24,000 bases of DNA from positions 1,225,117 to 1,249,116 of the forward strand of contig JAXGMD010000001.1 in assembly GCA_040768865.1 (NCBI GenBank), written 5' to 3'. The notes under the pieces were generated by a model. It did no database searches. It was not told the origin of the DNA and worked only from the letters and a program-made list of their open reading frames with translations. The first letter of the stretch is position 1, and the number at the start of each line of letters is the position of its first letter. Of this stretch, positions 7,459-19,038 are shown piece after piece. This DNA comes from Candidatus Copromorpha sp. GTDB lineage: Bacteria; Bacillota; Clostridia; Peptostreptococcales; Anaerovoracaceae. The translations under genes and the position numbers were made by a program.

Positions 7459-7478
7459 AGTAAAACAGGAGGGTGTTT

Positions 7479-8921
7479 ATGTATCTGGAAGAAATAATTG
7501 GTGATGTACAATTGGAGAGCAGCAAGTTTGAGAGTAAAGAAATTTTGAATCGTGATAATGTTGTAGGATGGCTTAAAACAGTTGCGGGATTTGCCAATGC
7601 ATCGGGTGGTGAATTATATTTGGGCGTTAAGGATAAGACAAATAAATTGGTTGGCTTTGATAGACGAGATGCTGACAATGAACGCAATTACTTCAATAAT
7701 CAAGTAAATGAACATCTGACTCCAAGACCTCAAATGGATATTTCGTTTTTACCATACAAAGTTAGGGATAATGAGCGGTTCATCATAAAAATCAGTATTC
7801 CGGAATCAGTGGTTAAACCAGTAATTCTGAAATACAAAAGTATACCTTCTATATATATGAGAAGAGATGGCTTTACAAATGGAGCTACATATGAAGAAAT
7901 TGTTGAAATGAGTATTAAGAGCAAGAATACACAATATGATATTTTGGTTTCTGATGCTAAATATGAAAAAAGTAAGATATCCAAACTCCATTCATTTTAT
8001 AAAGAACATAATTATGGTGAAGAATTAAAGGAGAAATTTTTGCGTTCTATAGGCTTTGTAAACGAAGATGGATATTTACTGAATGGTGCTGTCTTGTTCC
8101 TGGACGATTACGATGGAAAGAAAACTGAAGTACAATGTTCTGTTTTTTCTGGCTTTAATAAAGGGAGTGAAAGAATAGTAACAGTTAATCGTTTTAATGG
8201 GAATATTATCGAAACAATTGAGTACATCATGGGATTTGTGAACCAGAGAATGAATCGTTCAATGATTAAAAAAATGGATAAAAGAATAAACATCGATGCA
8301 TATCCACAGCGTGCTCTATTTGAAGGTGTGATAAATGCGGTTGCACATAGAGATTATTATTTAGATGGAACCCAGATTCAGGTTGATATGTATAAGGACA
8401 GACTCGAAATTTCTTCGCCCGGTGGATTTTATAGAGGTGAAAGATTCGGTAAAACATATGATTTGTCAGGAGTTATTTCGAAACGAAGAAATGAATTAAT
8501 TTCAAATGTGCTTGTAGGGTGTAATGTTATGGAAGCCGCAGGTACCGGTTTTGATAAGATAATGGAGGAGTACGCAGAAGCAGATCAACCTCACAAACCG
8601 TATATTTATTCTTCATCGGATCATTTCACTTTGGTACTTCCGGATTTGACATACGAAAATGGCGTTAAAGATGAGCGATTAGCAGCCATTTCTTTTGTGC
8701 CTGCTTCAAATAGTACAGAACATGATGAGAAAGTTTTGGCGTTTTGCTATCATCAAGCACACAAAGCGTCAGAAATAGCACAATTCCTCGGTCTTAAAGA
8801 TTCTACATATTTTAGAAACAAAGTGTTAAATAATCTTGTGGAACAGGAGTATTTGTTGAAAAGTAAAGGATTAAGAGCATGGTATTATAGGACAAACTCC
8901 GATTCAGTACAACAACAATGA
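7479..8921 (+). CDS. AlbA_2 (Schlafen-like) + HATPase_c_4 + C-terminal wHTH protein, the family usually annotated as a putative ATP-dependent DNA-binding regulator
   Basis: The N-terminal ESSKFESKE...VVGWLKTVAGFANASGGELYLGVKD is the AlbA_2 signature. RALFEGVINAVAHRDYYLDGTQIQVDMYKDRLEISSPGG is the HATPase_c_4 signature. The C-terminal ASEIAQFLGLKDSTYFRNKVLNNLVEQEYL is wHTH-like. ATG 7479 lies 6 nt after the AGGAGGG RBS. The track start at 7473 is a GTG inside that RBS. Confidence 0.85.
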   Translation: MYLEEIIGDVQLESSKFESKEILNRDNVVGWLKTVAGFANASGGELYLGVKDKTNKLVGFDRRDADNERNYFNNQVNEHLTPRPQMDISFLPYKVRDNERFIIKISIPESVVKPVILKYKSIPSIYMRRDGFTNGATYEEIVEMSIKSKNTQYDILVSDAKYEKSKISKLHSFYKEHNYGEELKEKFLRSIGFVNEDGYLLNGAVLFLDDYDGKKTEVQCSVFSGFNKGSERIVTVNRFNGNIIETIEYIMGFVNQRMNRSMIKKMDKRINIDAYPQRALFEGVINAVAHRDYYLDGTQIQVDMYKDRLEISSPGGFYRGERFGKTYDLSGVISKRRNELISNVLVGCNVMEAAGTGFDKIMEEYAEADQPHKPYIYSSSDHFTLVLPDLTYENGVKDERLAAISFVPASNSTEHDEKVLAFCYHQAHKASEIAQFLGLKDSTYFRNKVLNNLVEQEYLLKSKGLRAWYYRTNSDSVQQQ

Positions 8922-12272: not shown

Positions 12273-12434
12273 ATGGATAATATAATTGATATTTTGAACG
12301 ACGACAAAGACTTGCAAGCATTAAAAAAGCAGTATGAAGAAAAATACATGAAAAATGCACCACCCTTTAATACTGATGAATATAACGGTATTGATGATTA
12401 CAAAGAACAATTAAAGAAATTAGTGGAAGGCTAA
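12273..12434 (+). CDS. Small acidic hypothetical protein (53 aa), below the track's length cutoff
   Basis: A GGAAGGA RBS (12261-12267) lies 5 nt before the ATG. The protein is MDNIIDILNDDKDLQALKKQYEEKYMKNAPPFNTDEYNGIDDYKEQLKKLVEG*. Its 3' end carries the GGAAGG RBS for the next gene, and its stop is 5 nt before TTG 12440. Confidence 0.45.
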   Translation: MDNIIDILNDDKDLQALKKQYEEKYMKNAPPFNTDEYNGIDDYKEQLKKLVEG

Positions 12435-12439
12435 GCAGT

Positions 12440-14410
12440 TTGATTATAAACATTCAAGACGATATTTTAAAACTTAATAGTATAAAAATTCTTGATAAGC
12501 TTTTGGTTGATAAAACAACGCGAAAAAACATCATGTGGGCTACGGATGCTTATGACGATGCAGGGGAATTGTATGAAAGAAATAAAGAGATAACAATTCA
12601 AGCTGTTACAGGACATAATGCCGGAGTTATCAAAACACGAGCAAGAAAGGCGTTAGAGAGTCAGGAAAAGAGAACGCGACAACATGCGGAGATTTTCACG
12701 CCACTATGGCTTTGCAATTTGATGAATAATCAAACTGATGAAGAATGGTTCGGGAGAAAAGAAGTTTTCAACAAGGATGGAGAGCCAACGGAAAAAGTAA
12801 AATTCCCGGAAGGGAAAACCTGGCAAAAATACATTAAATCAAGGCGGATGGAAATAACTTGTGGAGAGGCTCCTTTTCTCGTTAGCAGATATGATGTTGA
12901 AACAGGCGAAATGATACCTGTTAGTAAACGAATAGGAATACTCGATCGCAAATTGCGGACTGTTAGCGAAAACACCGAAACTGAAGCTGAGTGGATGAAA
13001 TGGACTATAAGAGCTTTTCAAGCGACATATGGCTATGAGTTTCAGGGAGACAATGTCCTTATTGCACGGGTAAATATGCTTATGACATTTGAGGAACACT
13101 TAGAGGATAGATGGGGTAGAAAGCCATCCTACAGGGAATACGAAAAGTTTGCAAATATCATTGCTTGGAACATCTGGCAAATGGATGGTCTAACCGGGAC
13201 AGTTCCGTATTGCAAGGCTAAAGAGGAAGATTTACAGACAAATATGTTCGATAAGATAGGCATGAACTTTGAACCAGAGGAAGAGGATGTACAGCCGCCG
13301 TGCAGGATATATGACTGGTTAGGCAAAAACAGAAGTATAGAATTTATATCGCTTAGGAACAAGAGGGAAAAAATGAAATTTGATTTTATTATCGGGAATC
13401 CACCGTATCAAGAAGAGCAGGAAGGGGACAATAAAACATTTGCTCCGCCTATTTATCACAAGTTTTTGGAAGAAGCATATAAACTATCTGATTGTGTTGA
13501 AATGGTTCATCCTGCCAGATTTTTATTCAATGCGGGAAGTACTCCAAAGGAATGGAACCGCAAGATACTATCAGATCCACATTTAAAGGTGCTGTTTTAT
13601 GAACAAGATAGCAGTAAAGTTTTCCTAAATACTGATATTAAAGGTGGGGTAGCGATAACATATCGGGATAAAAAGCATAAGAATAAACCAATAGGAACTT
13701 TTACAGCGTTTGAAGAATTAAACTCACTATTAAATAAGGTTTATGGAAGTGACGGTTTTGACAGCTTTAGTAAGATTGTGTTTACACGCACAGCATATCG
13801 TTTGACAGATATCATGCATAACGAACATCCTGAAGCATTAAGCCAATTAAGTAAGGGACATGCGTATGATATGTCTACAAATATATTCGAATTGCTGCCT
13901 CAAATTTTTTATGATGAGAAGCCAGATGATGAGACTTATAGTTATATTAAAATTTTGGGACGGGAAAACAATCAGAGAACTTACAAATGGATTCGAAGAG
14001 ATTATGTAAATGATGTTACCAATTTAGAAAAATGGAAAATTATTTTACCAAAATCTAATGGTTCCGGTGCACTTGGGGAGGTATTAACAACACCCCTAAT
14101 CGGGGAACCCCTAATCGGGTCAACAGAATCCTTTATAAGCATTGGTGATTTTGAAACAGAAGAAGAGGTAGTTGCATGTTTGAAATATGTTAAATCGAAG
14201 TTTGCGAGATGCATGTTAGGCATACTTAAGGTTACACAGGACAATCCACCGGAAAAGTGGAAATATATCCCAATGCAGGACTTCACAGAGACTTCTGATA
14301 TTGACTGGTCAAAGTCAATATCAGAAGTTGACGAGCAAATATATAAGAAATATGGGCTAAGCAATCAAGAAATAGAGTTTATTGAATCGCATGTCAAGGA
14401 GATGGAATAA
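12440..14410 (+). CDS. Eco57I-like gamma-class N6-adenine DNA methyltransferase with a C-terminal target-recognition-like domain (656 aa)
   Basis: Motif X-like AEIFTPLWLCNLMNN comes first. Motif I-like RMEITCGEAPFL follows, then motif IV FDFIIGNPPYQ (NPPY at 13397-13408). The C-terminal ...KSKFARCMLGILKVTQ...IDEQIYKKYGLSNQEIEFIESHVKEM is typical of Eco57I/TaqI-type TRD tails. The TTG start is 9 nt after GGAAGG. The alternative ATG (MWATDAY) would remove 31 aa. Confidence 0.88.
   Translation: MIINIQDDILKLNSIKILDKLLVDKTTRKNIMWATDAYDDAGELYERNKEITIQAVTGHNAGVIKTRARKALESQEKRTRQHAEIFTPLWLCNLMNNQTDEEWFGRKEVFNKDGEPTEKVKFPEGKTWQKYIKSRRMEITCGEAPFLVSRYDVETGEMIPVSKRIGILDRKLRTVSENTETEAEWMKWTIRAFQATYGYEFQGDNVLIARVNMLMTFEEHLEDRWGRKPSYREYEKFANIIAWNIWQMDGLTGTVPYCKAKEEDLQTNMFDKIGMNFEPEEEDVQPPCRIYDWLGKNRSIEFISLRNKREKMKFDFIIGNPPYQEEQEGDNKTFAPPIYHKFLEEAYKLSDCVEMVHPARFLFNAGSTPKEWNRKILSDPHLKVLFYEQDSSKVFLNTDIKGGVAITYRDKKHKNKPIGTFTAFEELNSLLNKVYGSDGFDSFSKIVFTRTAYRLTDIMHNEHPEALSQLSKGHAYDMSTNIFELLPQIFYDEKPDDETYSYIKILGRENNQRTYKWIRRDYVNDVTNLEKWKIILPKSNGSGALGEVLTTPLIGEPLIGSTESFISIGDFETEEEVVACLKYVKSKFARCMLGILKVTQDNPPEKWKYIPMQDFTETSDIDWSKSISEVDEQIYKKYGLSNQEIEFIESHVKEME
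14093..14122 (+). repeat. In-frame 15-bp tandem duplication inside the methyltransferase TRD
   Basis: The sequence reads CCCCTAATCGGGgaa CCCCTAATCGGGtca, encoding PLIGE-PLIGS. Confidence 0.85.
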
Positions 14411-17400
14411 TGGCTACACCGAAGATTAAGTCTTTTACCTCTGTGGTTCCTATGATTTATGCCTATAATACTCCCGGGGTTTTGTACCATGAAGGATGGA
14501 CGAAAATAGGGTATACAGAAAAACAATCGGTTGCAGATCGCATCAAGCAACAGACGCACACTGCAGGAATAAAGCCGGTGATTGCATGGCAGGATAACGC
14601 AATATATAAAGACGGATCCGGCGAGTATTTCACTGATTATGAATTTCACGGCTATCTGGAAATTGAGAAAGAGGTGGAACGTGAAAAAGGAACTGAATGG
14701 TTCAAAATTGATGGTGCTAATTCAAAACAATATTTTGATTGCTTTGCAAGTCGTAGCTTTGATGAGATCCCGGAAGAAGAAAGATATTCATACACATTGC
14801 GCGATGAGCAGGCTGAAGCCGTTGCTATGACAAAAGAGTACTTTGAAAATGGTGGCGAGGAGTTTCTTTGGAATGCTAAACCGCGTTTTGGAAAGACTTT
14901 AACATCATATGATTTGATTAGAGAGATGGGATTTAAAAAGGTACTTATCGTTACTAACAGACCCAGCATCTCGAATTCATGGGCGGATGATTTTCACAAA
15001 TTCATAGGATGGAGAGGCGAACTTGCATTTGTATCTGAAACTGACGCGCTGAAAGACAAAAGAGGTGTTTTGAGTCGTGAAGAATATGTAAATCGTACCG
15101 TAGCCCTAGATTCCGAAAAAGCTCCGGGTATGGTTGCATTTGAATCTCTGCAAGGGCTTAAGGGATCCGTATATTTCGGGGGACAAATTGATAAGCTGGA
15201 ATGGATTCATGGAATCAATGATGGATTTGATCTTTTGATTATTGATGAGGCGCAAGAAGGCGTTGACACTATGCGTACAGAACGCGCCTTTAAATCCATA
15301 AAGAGGAAGCATACGCTTTATCTTTCAGGAACCCCGTTTAAAGCCCTTGCCAGTGAGCAGTTTTCTAAAGAACAGATTTTTAACTGGTCCTATGCTGATG
15401 AGCAAGAGACAAAAGCAACATGGAAGAACGAAGATTACAATCCATATGAAATACTTCCGCGACTGGAAATGTATACATATCAACTTTCTGCAATGATTAG
15501 GGAGGAGATAGAGAAAGGGATAGACCTTTCAGAAGATGGTAGTACAGACTATGCATTTGATTTGAACGAGTTCTTTTCAACTAATGAGAGCGGTAAGTTT
15601 ATATATGAGGAAGATGTCAAGAAATTTCTGCATGCACTTTGCTCTCAAGAAAAATATCCGTATTCTACACCGGAATTGCGGCAAGAGTTGTCACATACTC
15701 TTTGGTTATTAAATCGTGTAGCCAGTGCAAAAGCATTAGCCAAATTGTTAAAAGATGATCCGGTCTTCAGGGAATATGAGGTTGTTCTTGCAGCCGGTGA
15801 TGGTCGTCTAGATGATAATGAAGCGACAGAAGCATCATTTGATAAAGTTAAAGAGGCCATAGCAAATAATGAAAAGACAATTACTCTCAGCGTCGGCCAG
15901 CTGACAGTTGGAGTTACCATACCTGAATGGAGTGGTGTTTTGATGCTATGCAATCTGAAGAGCCCATCATCGTACATGCAGGCAGCTTTTCGTGCACAAA
16001 ACCCGTGTATTGTTACTAAAGATGGAAAAAGATATCGCAAGGAAACCGCATATGTATTTGATTTCGACCCGGCGAGAACACTTATCATCTTCGATGAATT
16101 TGCAAACAATCTGTCAAAAGACACAGTGGATGGTCGAGGAACAAAAGGTGATAGAGAGCAAAACATTCGTAGATTATTGAATTTCTTCCCTGTTCTTGGA
16201 GAAGATGATGAGGGAACAATGATTGAACTGGATGCAGCTCAGGTTCTTTCAATTCCAAGACGAATTAAGAGCCAAGAGGTTGTGCGACGTGGATTTATGT
16301 CAAACTTCCTATTCCAGAATATCAGCAATGTATTTGGAGCTCCTGCAGTTGTTCGTGAAATTGTGGAGAAGCTTACACCTGCACATGAAGAAACGAAAAG
16401 GACAGATAAAGAAAAGCTGAAGGACCTAGAAGGTGTTTCTGTAAATGAAGATGGGGAAGTTGAGATTCCGGTGGAAATAGTAATTGGTAAGACCCGAGAG
16501 CTTTTTGGCGAAAAAATATATGAGACTCTCGAATCTGACTTGAATGGAACGCTGAATGGTATTAACAAGAATTCCGAATTTGAGGGGATTGAGAGCGGTA
16601 TAGAGGAAGTCATAGAGACGGTAAAGAATAGCCTTAAGGGAAGTGTTATAAAACCGGCATCCGATGAGTACGATCTCAAATCACGTACTCAGCAGAGGAT
16701 TGAAAAACAGCTAGACAGAGAGATTGAAACTACCTTTATGAAAATAAAGGATGACTATAAGCAACAGGCATCCATAGCAAAGGCAGAGCTCGAACGAAAA
16801 CGGAAAGAGGCGGAATCAGAGCAGGATGTTAAACAAGCCGATGCAGAGTATGAGATGTGTATGGATGATGCCATGAAAGGGCTTATGGAGGCTGCAAAAG
16901 AAACAATAAAGAAGACCATTGATGAAAAACCAAAAGAAGTTATTGAGAAAATAGAAAAGATTCGTGCGGAAGCGGAGAAGAAAACAATAGAGGATACCAT
17001 ACGAGATCACCTTAGAGGTTTTTCAAGAACTATTCCTAGCTTCATCATGGCTTATGGAGATGGAAATATCACCTTAGCGAACTTTGATGAATATACAGAG
17101 GATGATGTTTTTCAAGCGGTTACCGGCATTTCTGAAGAAGATTTCAGATTTTTAAGAGACGGTGGCAATTATGAGAATCCGGAAACAGGTGAGACAGAGT
17201 ACTTTGATGGAAAACTATTTGATGAAGTTGTGTTTAACGATTCAGTTGAAGAGTTCTGGAACAAGAAAATCTCATTAGCTGACTATTTTGACGAAACGCA
17301 TGAAGAAGATATTTTTGATTATATTCCGCCACAGAAAACTAACCAAATATTTACGCCAAGATGGGTAGTTGCTACAATGGTAGATCAATTGGAAGAGAAC

Positions 17401-17733
17401 AATCCCGGCTGTTTTGATGATCCAACAAATACCTTTGCCGACCTGTATATGAAGTCCGGTCTTTATATTACAGAGATTGTAAAGCGGCTATATAGAAGCG
17501 ATGAAATTAAGAAGGTCTATCCTGATAACGAGGAAAGGATTCGTCATATTCTTAGGAATCAGGTGTATGGCATGGCTCCAACCAGAATCATTTATCTGAT
17601 TGCGACTAATTATATTCTGGGATTTGATGAAAGCTTGAAAGATGAGGTAATGAACTTTATTCAATGTGATGCTGCTGAAGCATCGAAAAATGGGAAGCTG
17701 GGGGAAATGGTGGATAAGTTTTTTGATATTTAG
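14410..17733 (+). CDS. Multidomain protein (1107 aa): N-terminal T5orf172/GIY-YIG-like domain, SF2 (ResIII/DEAD-like) helicase, Glu/Lys coiled-coil, and a C-terminal degenerate methyltransferase-like region
   Basis: The ATG overlaps the upstream stop (TAATG, 14408-14412), and an AAGGAG RBS lies 9 nt upstream. Residues 15-100 (IYAYNTPG...TKIGYTEKQSVADRIKQQ...YEFHGYL...GTEWFKI) fit the T5orf172 pattern. Walker A is PRFGKT (GKT at 14890-14898). The DEAQ box is LLIIDEAQEG (15244-15255). Motif III is LYLSGTPF and motif VI-like is MQAAFRAQNP. Residues ~655-875 are E/K-rich. Residues 980 onward read IFTPRWVVATMVDQL...FADLYMKSGLYITEI...VYGMAPTRIIYLIATNYIL, which resembles methyltransferase motifs X and I, but no NPPY follows. 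Confidence 0.88.
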   Translation: MATPKIKSFTSVVPMIYAYNTPGVLYHEGWTKIGYTEKQSVADRIKQQTHTAGIKPVIAWQDNAIYKDGSGEYFTDYEFHGYLEIEKEVEREKGTEWFKIDGANSKQYFDCFASRSFDEIPEEERYSYTLRDEQAEAVAMTKEYFENGGEEFLWNAKPRFGKTLTSYDLIREMGFKKVLIVTNRPSISNSWADDFHKFIGWRGELAFVSETDALKDKRGVLSREEYVNRTVALDSEKAPGMVAFESLQGLKGSVYFGGQIDKLEWIHGINDGFDLLIIDEAQEGVDTMRTERAFKSIKRKHTLYLSGTPFKALASEQFSKEQIFNWSYADEQETKATWKNEDYNPYEILPRLEMYTYQLSAMIREEIEKGIDLSEDGSTDYAFDLNEFFSTNESGKFIYEEDVKKFLHALCSQEKYPYSTPELRQELSHTLWLLNRVASAKALAKLLKDDPVFREYEVVLAAGDGRLDDNEATEASFDKVKEAIANNEKTITLSVGQLTVGVTIPEWSGVLMLCNLKSPSSYMQAAFRAQNPCIVTKDGKRYRKETAYVFDFDPARTLIIFDEFANNLSKDTVDGRGTKGDREQNIRRLLNFFPVLGEDDEGTMIELDAAQVLSIPRRIKSQEVVRRGFMSNFLFQNISNVFGAPAVVREIVEKLTPAHEETKRTDKEKLKDLEGVSVNEDGEVEIPVEIVIGKTRELFGEKIYETLESDLNGTLNGINKNSEFEGIESGIEEVIETVKNSLKGSVIKPASDEYDLKSRTQQRIEKQLDREIETTFMKIKDDYKQQASIAKAELERKRKEAESEQDVKQADAEYEMCMDDAMKGLMEAAKETIKKTIDEKPKEVIEKIEKIRAEAEKKTIEDTIRDHLRGFSRTIPSFIMAYGDGNITLANFDEYTEDDVFQAVTGISEEDFRFLRDGGNYENPETGETEYFDGKLFDEVVFNDSVEEFWNKKISLADYFDETHEEDIFDYIPPQKTNQIFTPRWVVATMVDQLEENNPGCFDDPTNTFADLYMKSGLYITEIVKRLYRSDEIKKVYPDNEERIRHILRNQVYGMAPTRIIYLIATNYILGFDESLKDEVMNFIQCDAAEASKNGKLGEMVDKFFDI

Positions 17734-17747
17734 GACACTGGAGCAAG

Positions 17748-18770
17748 GTGATAAAAATAATGAAAAATGAAAGTACATCAACTAATCATAGACAAGACAA
17801 CTATGTAGATAATCGCATCTGCAACAAAAGCAGTAAAGATGCATTGTTAGGTTTGGCCGTTGCCGATGCATTAGGAGTTCCTGTGGAATTTTCAATAAGA
17901 AAAAGGCTGCAGCAAAATCCGGTTGTTGGAATGCGAGGTTTTGGATCTCATGATGTACCGGCAGGAACATGGTCAGATGACACATCCATGACTATTGCCA
18001 CCATGCAGGCAGTTGCGGATAAAGGTCAAATAGACTATGACGAAATAATGAACAATTTCAGTAAATGGCTCAATGAGGGTGAGTTTACCACCGATGGCAA
18101 AGTATTTGATGTTGGTGGTACATGCCTTCGTGCAGTCATGAAATGGTGCCGAGGTGGTTGCGAGCCAATAGATGCAGGAATGAAAGGTGAACGCAATAAC
18201 GGCAACGGATCTTTGATGCGGTTTTTGCCGGTTCCATTCTATTGTTACTCTAAAGGAATACAAGGCAATGATCTAGTAAAAATCTGCAATGAGATCTCAT
18301 CTCTTACCCACAGTCATGAAATAAGTCGTTTGGGATGCTATATTTACACAATTTTTATGATGGAACTTTTGAGAGGTCATAATCTAAGAGAGGCATATGA
18401 GAATATGCAGAAGGCAGACTATAGCGCTTATTCTGCAGAGAGCATTGGAATATATTCCAGGATATTGAATAATGATATTTCTGTTTTGGCAGAAGAGTCA
18501 ATTGAGTCGGATGGATATGTTGTTTACACATTGGAAGCAGCGCTCTGGTGCCTCCTGAACGGAAAAGATTACAAAAGCACAGCCTTAATGGCAGTAAATC
18601 TTGGTCGAGATACAGATACAGTAGCAGCTGTTGCCGGCTCCATGGCGGGCATTGTCTATGGAAAAGAAAGTATACCGACTGAATGGCTGGAAGTTTTGCT
18701 TAGGAGAGAGTACTTGGAAAATCTTTCAGAAAGATTTGATTGTGCATTAATTCGTACAATTATAGATTAG
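17748..18770 (+). CDS. ADP-ribosylglycohydrolase family protein (DraG/ARH-like)
   Basis: Motifs present are LLGLAVADALGVPVEF, GTWSDDTSMT, NGNGSLMR, THSH, DGYVVYTLEAALWCL and GRDTDTVAAVAGSMAGIVYG (the metal-binding Asp/Thr clusters). The gene starts 14 nt after the helicase stop. The start is ambiguous between GTG 17748 and ATG 17760. Confidence 0.88.
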   Translation: MIKIMKNESTSTNHRQDNYVDNRICNKSSKDALLGLAVADALGVPVEFSIRKRLQQNPVVGMRGFGSHDVPAGTWSDDTSMTIATMQAVADKGQIDYDEIMNNFSKWLNEGEFTTDGKVFDVGGTCLRAVMKWCRGGCEPIDAGMKGERNNGNGSLMRFLPVPFYCYSKGIQGNDLVKICNEISSLTHSHEISRLGCYIYTIFMMELLRGHNLREAYENMQKADYSAYSAESIGIYSRILNNDISVLAEESIESDGYVVYTLEAALWCLLNGKDYKSTALMAVNLGRDTDTVAAVAGSMAGIVYGKESIPTEWLEVLLRREYLENLSERFDCALIRTIID

Positions 18771-18828
18771 ATTATGATATAATCAATCTGCCCCGGATTG
18801 GTGGATCCGAGGCAGATGGTGCTGGTTG

Positions 18829-18918
18829 CTATTTGTGGTAACGACTCAGCCACTTGCAGATATAGTTGGCAATTATACCTGCTACAGTCGAAACTAAAAG
18901 CGCACATAGAATATTCAT
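18829..18918 (-). CDS. Type I toxin candidate: a 29-aa hydrophobic peptide (Fst/Ldr/PepA1-like)
   Basis: It is not in the ORF track because it is too short. The minus strand reads GGAAAGGAGGTGctatATG and then MNILCALLVSTVAGIIANYICKWLSRYHK*, a single TM helix with a basic tail. It resembles S. aureus PepA1 (...SGCAIAFFSYWLSRRNTK) as I recall it. A perfect consensus promoter lies upstream. Confidence 0.65.
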   Translation of the reverse strand: MNILCALLVSTVAGIIANYICKWLSRYHK

Positions 18919-19010: not shown

Positions 19011-19038
19011 TTGACTAAATTTATTATGGTGTTATAAT
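19011..19038 (+). promoter_or_regulatory. Promoter for the divergent small RNA
   Basis: The -35 is TTGACT (19011-19016), followed by a 16-bp spacer and an extended -10 TGtTATAAT (19030-19038). It sits back-to-back with the toxin promoter. Confidence 0.6.

Follow-up and report, generated by a model that had tools for sequence, protein, structure and literature searches.

Directly behind the two genes of a restriction-modification (R-M) module in Candidatus Copromorpha sp., a gene for an ADP-ribosylglycohydrolase (ARH) occupies positions 17748..18770 on the plus strand of the 24,000-nt stretch analysed here (contig JAXGMD010000001.1, positions 1,225,117 to 1,249,116; hereafter the window). An earlier note on this stretch took the gene for the terminal cistron of an operon with the methyltransferase (MTase) and helicase genes of that module. 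The comparisons described below indicate that the ARH is not a component of the adjoining R-M system, but a one-off occupant of the site behind it. In the reading that we favour, and consider fairly probable, it is an autonomous eraser of the DraG/Tri1 clade that sits in a swap slot and removes foreign ADP-ribose.

The open reading frame (ORF) proposed in the note is real and full-length, as both the sequence itself and a profile match indicate. It encodes 340 aa from the GTG at 17748; the ATG at 17760, which gives 336 aa, is probably the real start and is the one used in public gene calls, where the exact 336-aa sequence is recorded (P0241) and the 340-aa version is absent. Against PF03747 (ADP_ribosyl_GH), the product reaches E 2.7e-71 and 241 bits (cut-off 26.2) over profile positions 2-287 of 287, i.e. 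a full-length match above the gathering score, and its gene is the sole PF03747 gene of the 1.9-Mb single-contig genome. The metal-binding signatures WSDDTS (residues 75-80) and GRDTDTVAA (286-294) are intact. In an alignment of 83 sequences, made up of the ARH and 82 single-domain homologues, all positions conserved in at least 95% are retained, namely E47, S76 D77 D78 T79, D121, N151-R158 (the NGNGSLMR loop), T187 H188 and D288 D290 T291. The predicted catalytic and binuclear metal residues among them (E47, D77/D78/T79, D121 and D288/D290/T291) align with those of the known relatives Lmo0067 and Tri1, and the protein departs from the subfamily only in G39A and in a polar N-terminal extension of ~20 aa that is unique to it. 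Judged by residue conservation, the catalytic set is complete and the protein looks like an intact ADP-ribosylhydrolase that is probably functional, just as the note had supposed.

The adjoining module comprises an Eco57I-type MTase gene (12440..14410, plus strand) and the gene of a 1107-aa nuclease-motor subunit, hereafter the helicase (14410..17733, plus strand). Were the ARH a conserved third subunit of this system, it would tie ADP-ribose chemistry to restriction enzymes; the note had seen in it a functional link new to restriction-like modules, to be checked by looking for ARH genes behind homologous MTase-helicase pairs. In a scan for the helicase that covered one genome per GTDB species (126 relatives) and kept the best 80 loci (49-72% identity), the upstream MTase is found at 76 of the 80 loci and the ARH at none, either by tblastn at 1e-5 or with a hidden Markov model of the ARH subfamily (E<=10). 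This absence is informative because 66 of the loci hold at least 1100 nt past the helicase stop. The four closest relatives of the helicase (82, 80, 75 and 72% identity), drawn from a collection of 5.8 billion proteins, likewise have neither an ARH nor another eraser behind them. In those of 82, 80 and 75% identity, a gene for GmrSD+DUF4268 begins 3-18 nt after the helicase, and in the 72% relative (L124) an overlapping 377-aa gene of unknown kind follows.

At the DNA level, the window is homologous to the closest (82%) relative, L082, only over 12438-13668 and 14367-17743 (blastn). The homology thus ends ~10 nt past the helicase stop and five bases before the GTG of the ARH gene, and in a seven-locus multiple alignment similarity is also gone after the helicase stop. 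Directly before the MTase gene lies an acidic ORF of 53 aa (12273-12434, plus strand; phrog_8816 of unknown function, E 8e-14), which was rejected as a further operon member, since it is not conserved at the 80 homologous loci; it is also too small for an ADP-ribosyltransferase (ART). Taken together, the limits of DNA homology and the lack of conservation of this ORF define the conserved unit as exactly MTase plus helicase. A blastn comparison with L082 found no GmrSD remnant in the window that would be a sign of replacement.

The distribution of the ARH is independent as well, a situation that the note itself had named as speaking against its proposal. None of 24 congeneric genomes has an intact helicase, and ARH-subfamily genes (42-49% identity) lie elsewhere in about 8 of the 24. 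In one congener (G020; C11:14869-15279, locus L102), the helicase gene is represented by no more than a 3′ fragment (residues 969-1105, 82% identity), which points to decay of this R-M module in a related species. Because these are the very observations by which the note had said its claim would fail, the idea that MTase, helicase and ARH form one system is unsupported: co-occurrence backs neither a functional terminal cistron nor a new link for the restriction-like module. Since the ARH is not a conserved subunit, the wider question of ADP-ribose in restriction is not opened.

The site 3′ of the helicase is an exchange slot that holds mostly single-gene defence cassettes and is empty or filled with another cassette in other lineages. 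Among the 66 informative loci, the first gene after the helicase lies on the opposite strand in 25, is co-directional and loosely spaced in 18 (housekeeping genes, where scanned) and follows co-directionally within 60 nt in 23. These 23 tightly spaced third genes encode GmrSD (eight), HATPase_c_3 proteins (two), Mrr, AbiH and an OLD-type AAA_15-TOPRIM protein (one each); of the other ten, one is a sugar kinase, another a thioredoxin-like ORF, and eight are unmatched or unscanned ORFs that include two doubtful calls. A second Mrr stands at +98 nt in L024, outside the tight set. The ARH is one more occupant of this slot in the present species, and the enrichment of the slot for single-gene defences lends guilt-by-association support to a conflict role of an ART-less ARH.

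Several side observations concern the slot and its surroundings. GmrSD(+DUF4268) recurs behind the helicase at eight GTDB loci and in the three closest relatives, with gaps of -16 to +45 nt, and slot proteins of unknown kind have 590 aa (L030), 377 aa (L124), 267 aa (L055) and 215 aa (L047). A gene for a Schlafen/AlbA_2 plus HATPase_c_4 protein lies within a few kb of the R-M module on unrelated contigs; it precedes the module in the window and comes two genes after it in the 80% and 72% relatives (L123:6286-7752 and L124:10414-11898), and the copy in the window is only 27% identical to that of L124. The closest (82%) R-M relative lies on a conjugative element, and a TIR gene of the ThsB type is located three genes beyond its slot.

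Seen from the side of the ARH, the subfamily is a solo, patchily distributed and usually ART-less gene. The best homologue among the 5.8 billion proteins is 60% identical and is encoded between EamA transporter and sigma-factor genes, in contrast to the helicase, which has relatives at 82%. Within the class, 15 of 398 genomes have a homologue at E<=1e-40. A Pfam scan of 142 proteins flanking 20 ARH-homologue loci returned 165 families, none of them at more than three loci, so no conserved partner gene emerged from the 20 neighbourhoods; ART, Eco57I and ResIII families are absent from the 25 families listed. PADLOC annotated WYL (three times), mad2 (three), AbiEii (two) and GmrSD (one) among these neighbours, WYL proteins occurring at only 2-3 of the 20 loci, and for the most part the neighbours are commonplace genes (Clp ATPase, MetE, Nramp and transporters, for instance). 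An above-threshold PF03496 ART is present in only 1 of 18 ARH-bearing genomes, on another contig.

Fusions in the subfamily are of four kinds, i.e. tandem ARH-ARH, HTH_3-ARH, ARH-DUF6508 and ARH-DUF6508-GIY-YIG. The tandem form is common among close homologues (P0002-P0013, ~578 aa). The form with an N-terminal XRE-type HTH_3 domain (P0088 and P0094, ~531 aa) suggests, from its domain make-up, a DNA-binding eraser or an antitoxin-like regulator. DUF6508, on which the literature search found nothing, is fused to ARH at L107:6759-8963(-), L108:7983-9320(+) and L110:7593-8933(-), once with a C-terminal GIY-YIG nuclease, and in L108 a GmrSD-DUF4268-DUF7225 gene starts 44 nt after the ARH-DUF6508 gene. 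A 53%-identical ARH (L089:4339-8082) belongs to a mobilisable element, where it is divergent from relaxase/MobC and the order is HIRAN protein, three small ORFs, ARH, WYL-WCX regulator, two Dcm-type methylases, Mrr-like nuclease and McrB-like AAA_5; this layout is typical of anti-defence cargo of a leading region.

As to its place in the family, the closest solved structure is that of Listeria Lmo0067 (PDB 8ZA7; E 1.9e-68, residues 32-334 of 340), followed by Tri1 (6DRE, 5e-38), a Thermus ARH and DraG (2woc, 4e-26), whereas ARH3 (~1e-12) and ARH1 (~1e-4) match far more weakly. The equivalog models of both Tri1 and DraG match, at 177.8 bits against a cut-off of 490 for the NCBIfam Tri1 model NF041672 and at 137.2 bits against 337 for the DraG model TIGR02662. 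Because of this ranking of structures, with both models far below their cut-offs, the protein is best classed, by sequence comparison, as an uncharacterised protein of the DraG/Tri1 clade (protein-arginine type) that is neither Tri1 nor DraG. It also matches PHROG 6572 (ARH) at 2e-66, but a phage origin was rejected: the homologues from phages, all of them jumbo phages, do not exceed 31% identity. Plasmid homologues reach at most 45%.

Comparison with these relatives reveals shared chemistry in different surroundings. Lmo0067 of Listeria monocytogenes has the metal-site motifs VPVEF, WSDD[ST]S, FD[IV]G, NGNG and GxDTDT in common with the ARH. Its gene adjoins lmo0066, which encodes an EsaD-homologue toxin, in a hypervariable hotspot of type VII secretion (PMC5417603), whereas neither secretion nor toxin genes lie in the window; the literature search found no paper on Lmo0067 function. 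Tri1, an ADP-ribosylarginine hydrolase and immunity protein of Serratia proteamaculans (PDB 6DRE/6DRH), has the same DraG-like fold and E-D-D catalytic set. As a hydrolase it undoes ADP-ribosylation, even where the mark was set by a non-cognate ART toxin (PMC11606950; reviewed in PMC8120803), and this is the activity that we propose for the ARH. Unlike Tri1, the ARH has no adjoining Tre1-like ART and no type VI secretion system, and its N-terminal extension is unrelated to that of Tri1 and gives no sign of toxin occlusion. DraG shares the Pfam family and the metal-site residues. In contrast to DraG, the ARH has no nitrogen-fixation context, and the genome has no match to DRAT (PF07357), a family that was silent in control genomes too.

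A writer of the mark was sought at several levels. The note had seen no ART, macrodomain, TIR or SIR2 partner in the window, and a Pfam scan of its 23 larger ORFs, among them every ORF of at least 150 aa unless it stands in the shadow of a called gene, bears this out. The whole 1.9-Mb genome has no match to six ART families, PF03496 (ADPrib_exo_Tox), DRAT, DarT, PF01129 (ART), PARP and ART-PolyVal, a negative that is weak because four of the six matched no control genome. Searches of the genome for TIR_2 and ThsB_TIR came up empty as well; it encodes a single CobB-like SIR2, 71 kb from the ARH gene, and a single macro-domain protein.

The neighbouring proteins do not appear to conceal an ART either, although the note had suggested that one of their domains might place a mark for the ARH to reset, and had asked for the 53-aa ORF, the coiled coil and the target-recognition regions to be searched for an ART fold. 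When MTase, helicase tail and 53-aa ORF were compared with PDB sequences, nothing relevant to an ART came back, and Pfam and PADLOC scans of the neighbours were also negative; helicase tail and MTase N-part have only an IFTPxW motif in common (E 0.02). An AlphaFold model of the helicase (36-sequence alignment, mean confidence score (pLDDT) 77.5) fits LlaBIII, an enzyme of Type ISP, best among PDB folds (4XQK; E 2e-12, ~1050 aligned columns), followed by SF2/Snf2 helicases, and no ART fold is among the best 50 matches. PADLOC MTase_II profiles cover MTase residues 13-655, i.e. the protein end to end. With the helicase resembling only LlaBIII and SF2 proteins and the MTase accounted for by R-M profiles throughout, the hidden-writer proposal is left without support.

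Turning to expression, the helicase stop (17731-17733) is separated by 14 nt from the GTG at 17748 and by 26 nt from the ATG at 17760. The junction (17734..17759, plus strand) contains GGAG at 17740-17743 and AAGGTGAT at 17746-17753, the latter well placed as a putative ribosome-binding site for the ATG. A sequence scan of the gap detected no terminator and no promoter above 9/12 matches, and promoter-like sites are not in excess in the region (27 versus 24.6 expected from shuffled sequence). Because neither a terminator nor a strong promoter intervenes, the ARH gene is probably co-transcribed from the R-M operon by read-through. A GC-rich stem-loop 16 nt past the ARH stop (18786..18817), located between the ARH gene and a convergent small peptide gene, is a candidate for a transcript end shared by the two. 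The fold of 18760-18850 has a minimum free energy of -31.3 kcal/mol (z -3.7, 0/200 shuffles as good), and the stem-loop is not called a canonical T-run terminator by a simple scan. The GC content at third codon positions (GC3) is 0.347 for the ARH gene, close to that of the MTase (0.342) and helicase (0.353) genes and lower than that of Fic (0.456) and HipA (0.461), and the gene order HipBA-orf53-MTase-helicase-ARH-Fic recurs elsewhere in the lineage, on three further metagenome contigs and in an error-rich draft genome. Recurring order and matching GC3 suggest that the ARH has probably travelled, and been expressed, with the R-M module in this lineage.

From these elements a mode of action can be proposed. 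Transcribed by read-through from the R-M operon, the autonomous ARH would use its binuclear metal site to cleave ADP-ribose off macromolecules of the cell, most likely from arginine. The marks would be set by an extrinsic transferase, be it a phage ART of the Alt/Mod type or an ART toxin delivered by a competitor, and the ARH would serve as an orphan, broad-spectrum eraser immunity gene. That it should act on the marks of outsiders is suggested by the combination of an intact eraser, the lack of a writer, an island of conflict genes and a slot used by defence cassettes. Precedents are Tri1 with its action against non-cognate toxins, the prediction for ART-less genes described below, and Lmo0067 with its neighbouring toxin gene of type VII secretion; among validated systems, DarG3 and the phage protein AdfN, both treated below, are related erasers. 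Of the roles considered in the earlier note, the reversal of foreign (e.g. phage) ADP-ribosylation is hence the most plausible, while the tie to the R-M module that went with it is unsupported.

The reversal of foreign marks by an ARH without a coupled ART is not a new idea. ART-less conflict systems centred on an ADP-ribosylglycohydrolase (ARG) were predicted by Iyer, Burroughs, Anantharaman and Aravind (2022, Viruses 14:1977; PMC9503650 section 3.8), who proposed that such genes counter phage ARTs of the Alt/Mod type, with restriction endonucleases (REases) and helicases as variable add-ons. Their systems, from actinobacteria, planctomycetes and proteobacteria, have an adjacent WYL- or Nudix-HTH regulator (>42%) and/or a coupled phosphatase (~55%) or a chaperone (PMC9503650). 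Like these systems, the ARH lies in a conflict neighbourhood and, within the 24-kb window, has no coupled ART or sirtuin. Their core is missing around it, as no WYL- or Nudix-HTH regulator, phosphatase or chaperone is among the scanned ORFs, and its restriction neighbour is demonstrably not conserved. A second point of comparison is DarHTG, a validated anti-phage operon of DarT, a UvrD-like helicase and the ARH-like antitoxin DarG3 (PMC13069673), which likewise sets an ARH-fold eraser gene beside a helicase gene. The helicase near the ARH, however, is an SF2 ResIII/Type ISP motor rather than a UvrD-like protein, the ARH is not conserved with that motor, and, in contrast to DarTG and DarHTG, the genome has no match to DarT (PF14487), although that family was silent in control genomes too. 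The literature searched contained no experimental test of the orphan-ARG prediction, for which the ARH, as a single 336-aa gene, would be a compact and testable example. Going further, and with considerable doubt, one could regard stand-alone Lmo0067-like ARHs as a class of single-gene defence that shares the slot of GmrSD, Mrr, AbiH and OLD and forms a second line against phages that depend on injected or early ARTs; host proteins, perhaps the neighbouring restriction motor among them, would be restored after the phage had ADP-ribosylated them.

Some points weigh against an autonomous eraser of foreign marks. Only a minority of the neighbourhoods of ARH homologues look defence-related, which makes a non-conflict role possible; a divergent endogenous ART may lie beyond the six Pfam families searched; and sequence does not discriminate between arginine, serine, nucleic acid and O-acetyl-ADP-ribose substrates. 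In addition, the tight spacing of 14-26 nt without an obvious promoter of its own, the GC3 that matches MTase and helicase rather than Fic and HipA, and the helicase-ARH order that recurs in contigs and a draft genome of the lineage all fit co-acquisition and co-expression, and leave room for local functional interplay. The last three features are also what speaks for the ARH as a genuine, lineage-specific R-M accessory that strips the inactivating marks of a phage ART from the motor or MTase, as a counter-counter-defence, or resets a mark made by the R-M proteins: nothing in the short gap would stop or strongly start transcription, the codon-position composition is that of the R-M genes, the arrangement is stable across several samples of the lineage, and REases and helicases have been noted as variable add-ons of ARG-centred systems (PMC9503650). 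We still regard such an accessory as improbable, given that none of the 80 loci and none of the four nearest relatives has an ARH or other eraser in the slot, that homologous modules evidently work without it, that neither the helicase model nor the profile coverage of the MTase leaves an ART fold to be seen, and that ARH homologues show no preference for Eco57I/ResIII neighbours.

A housekeeping enzyme whose gene lies in the island by chance, and that hydrolyses sirtuin-made O-acetyl-ADP-ribose or reverses endogenous regulatory ADP-ribosylation, would suit the mostly ordinary neighbours of ARH homologues, the CobB-like SIR2 (71 kb off) and macro-domain protein of the genome, and the hydrolysis of O-acetyl-ADP-ribose by ARH3-type enzymes (PMC9503650). 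We think this unlikely for a gene that is so patchily distributed (15 of 398 class genomes at E<=1e-40, about 8 of 24 congeners), that is the sole ARH of its genome and lies inside a defence and toxin-antitoxin island, and whose product is nearer to the protein-arginine hydrolases DraG and Tri1 than to ARH3. Moreover, the usual deacylase of O-acetyl-ADP-ribose is a macro domain, and one is already encoded in the genome. The 53%-identical homologue in the transfer-proximal region of a mobilisable element (L089) and the location of the closest R-M relative on a conjugative element raise the thought of anti-defence cargo that clears the marks of DarT-type or RNA ARTs from the incoming nucleic acid of an element; phages have orphan erasers of this sort, such as the NADAR protein AdfN that acts against DarTG1 (PMC11825919), and DarHTG has an ARH-like antitoxin (PMC13069673). 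For the ARH itself this is very unlikely, since no integrase, relaxase or conjugation genes are among the scanned ORFs, the gene sits among host-protective modules rather than at a leading edge, and the characterised relatives of the clade act on protein arginine, not DNA. Least credible of all is the degradation of an immune signal derived from ADP-ribose, such as the cyclic ADP-ribose isomers of TIR systems, which the note had also considered. A ThsB-type TIR gene does lie three genes past the slot in the closest R-M relative, but the present genome has no TIR_2 or ThsB_TIR match, and thus no producer of the signal was found, and ARG domains have been argued to favour macromolecular conjugates over soluble derivatives (PMC9503650).

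The R-M module that precedes the ARH gene is a widespread, self-contained two-gene system of the Type ISP-like kind. Its first gene encodes a gamma N6-adenine MTase with a target-recognition domain (PF07669, E 3.5e-20), and its second the helicase (PF04851), in which an SF2 ResIII helicase and a coiled coil stand between two alpha/beta domains, a small one at the N-terminus and another at the C-terminus. MTase and helicase jointly match the type IIG/ISP profile of PADLOC. The fold of the helicase resembles that of the Type ISP enzymes LlaBIII/LlaGI (4XQK), the difference being that the activities are split over two genes here, with the MTase first. We know of no Type ISP or related system that includes an ARH.

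The island around these genes extends from ~7.4 to 21.6 kb of the window, holds defence and toxin-antitoxin genes, and has housekeeping genes on both sides: to its left pseudouridine synthase, signal peptidases, SmpB, ribonucleotide reductase and RtcB, to its right an alpha/beta hydrolase and an HTH-AMP-ligase. Its order is the Schlafen/AlbA_2 ATPase with HATPase_c_4 found by the Pfam scan (7473-8921, plus strand), AbiEi and a truncated AbiEii, HipBA, the 53-aa ORF, MTase, helicase, ARH, the convergent peptide gene, Fic and an IS110 transposase. The peptide gene (18832-18918, minus strand) encodes 29 hydrophobic residues, MNILCALLVSTVAGIIANYICKWLSRYHK, with only a sub-threshold Pfam match (Ldr toxin, E 0.07). 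It is preceded by a perfect TTGACA-17-TATAAT promoter (18993-18965, minus strand), back-to-back with an 11/12 promoter on the opposite strand (19011-19038, plus strand). The locus looks like a type I toxin-antitoxin locus.

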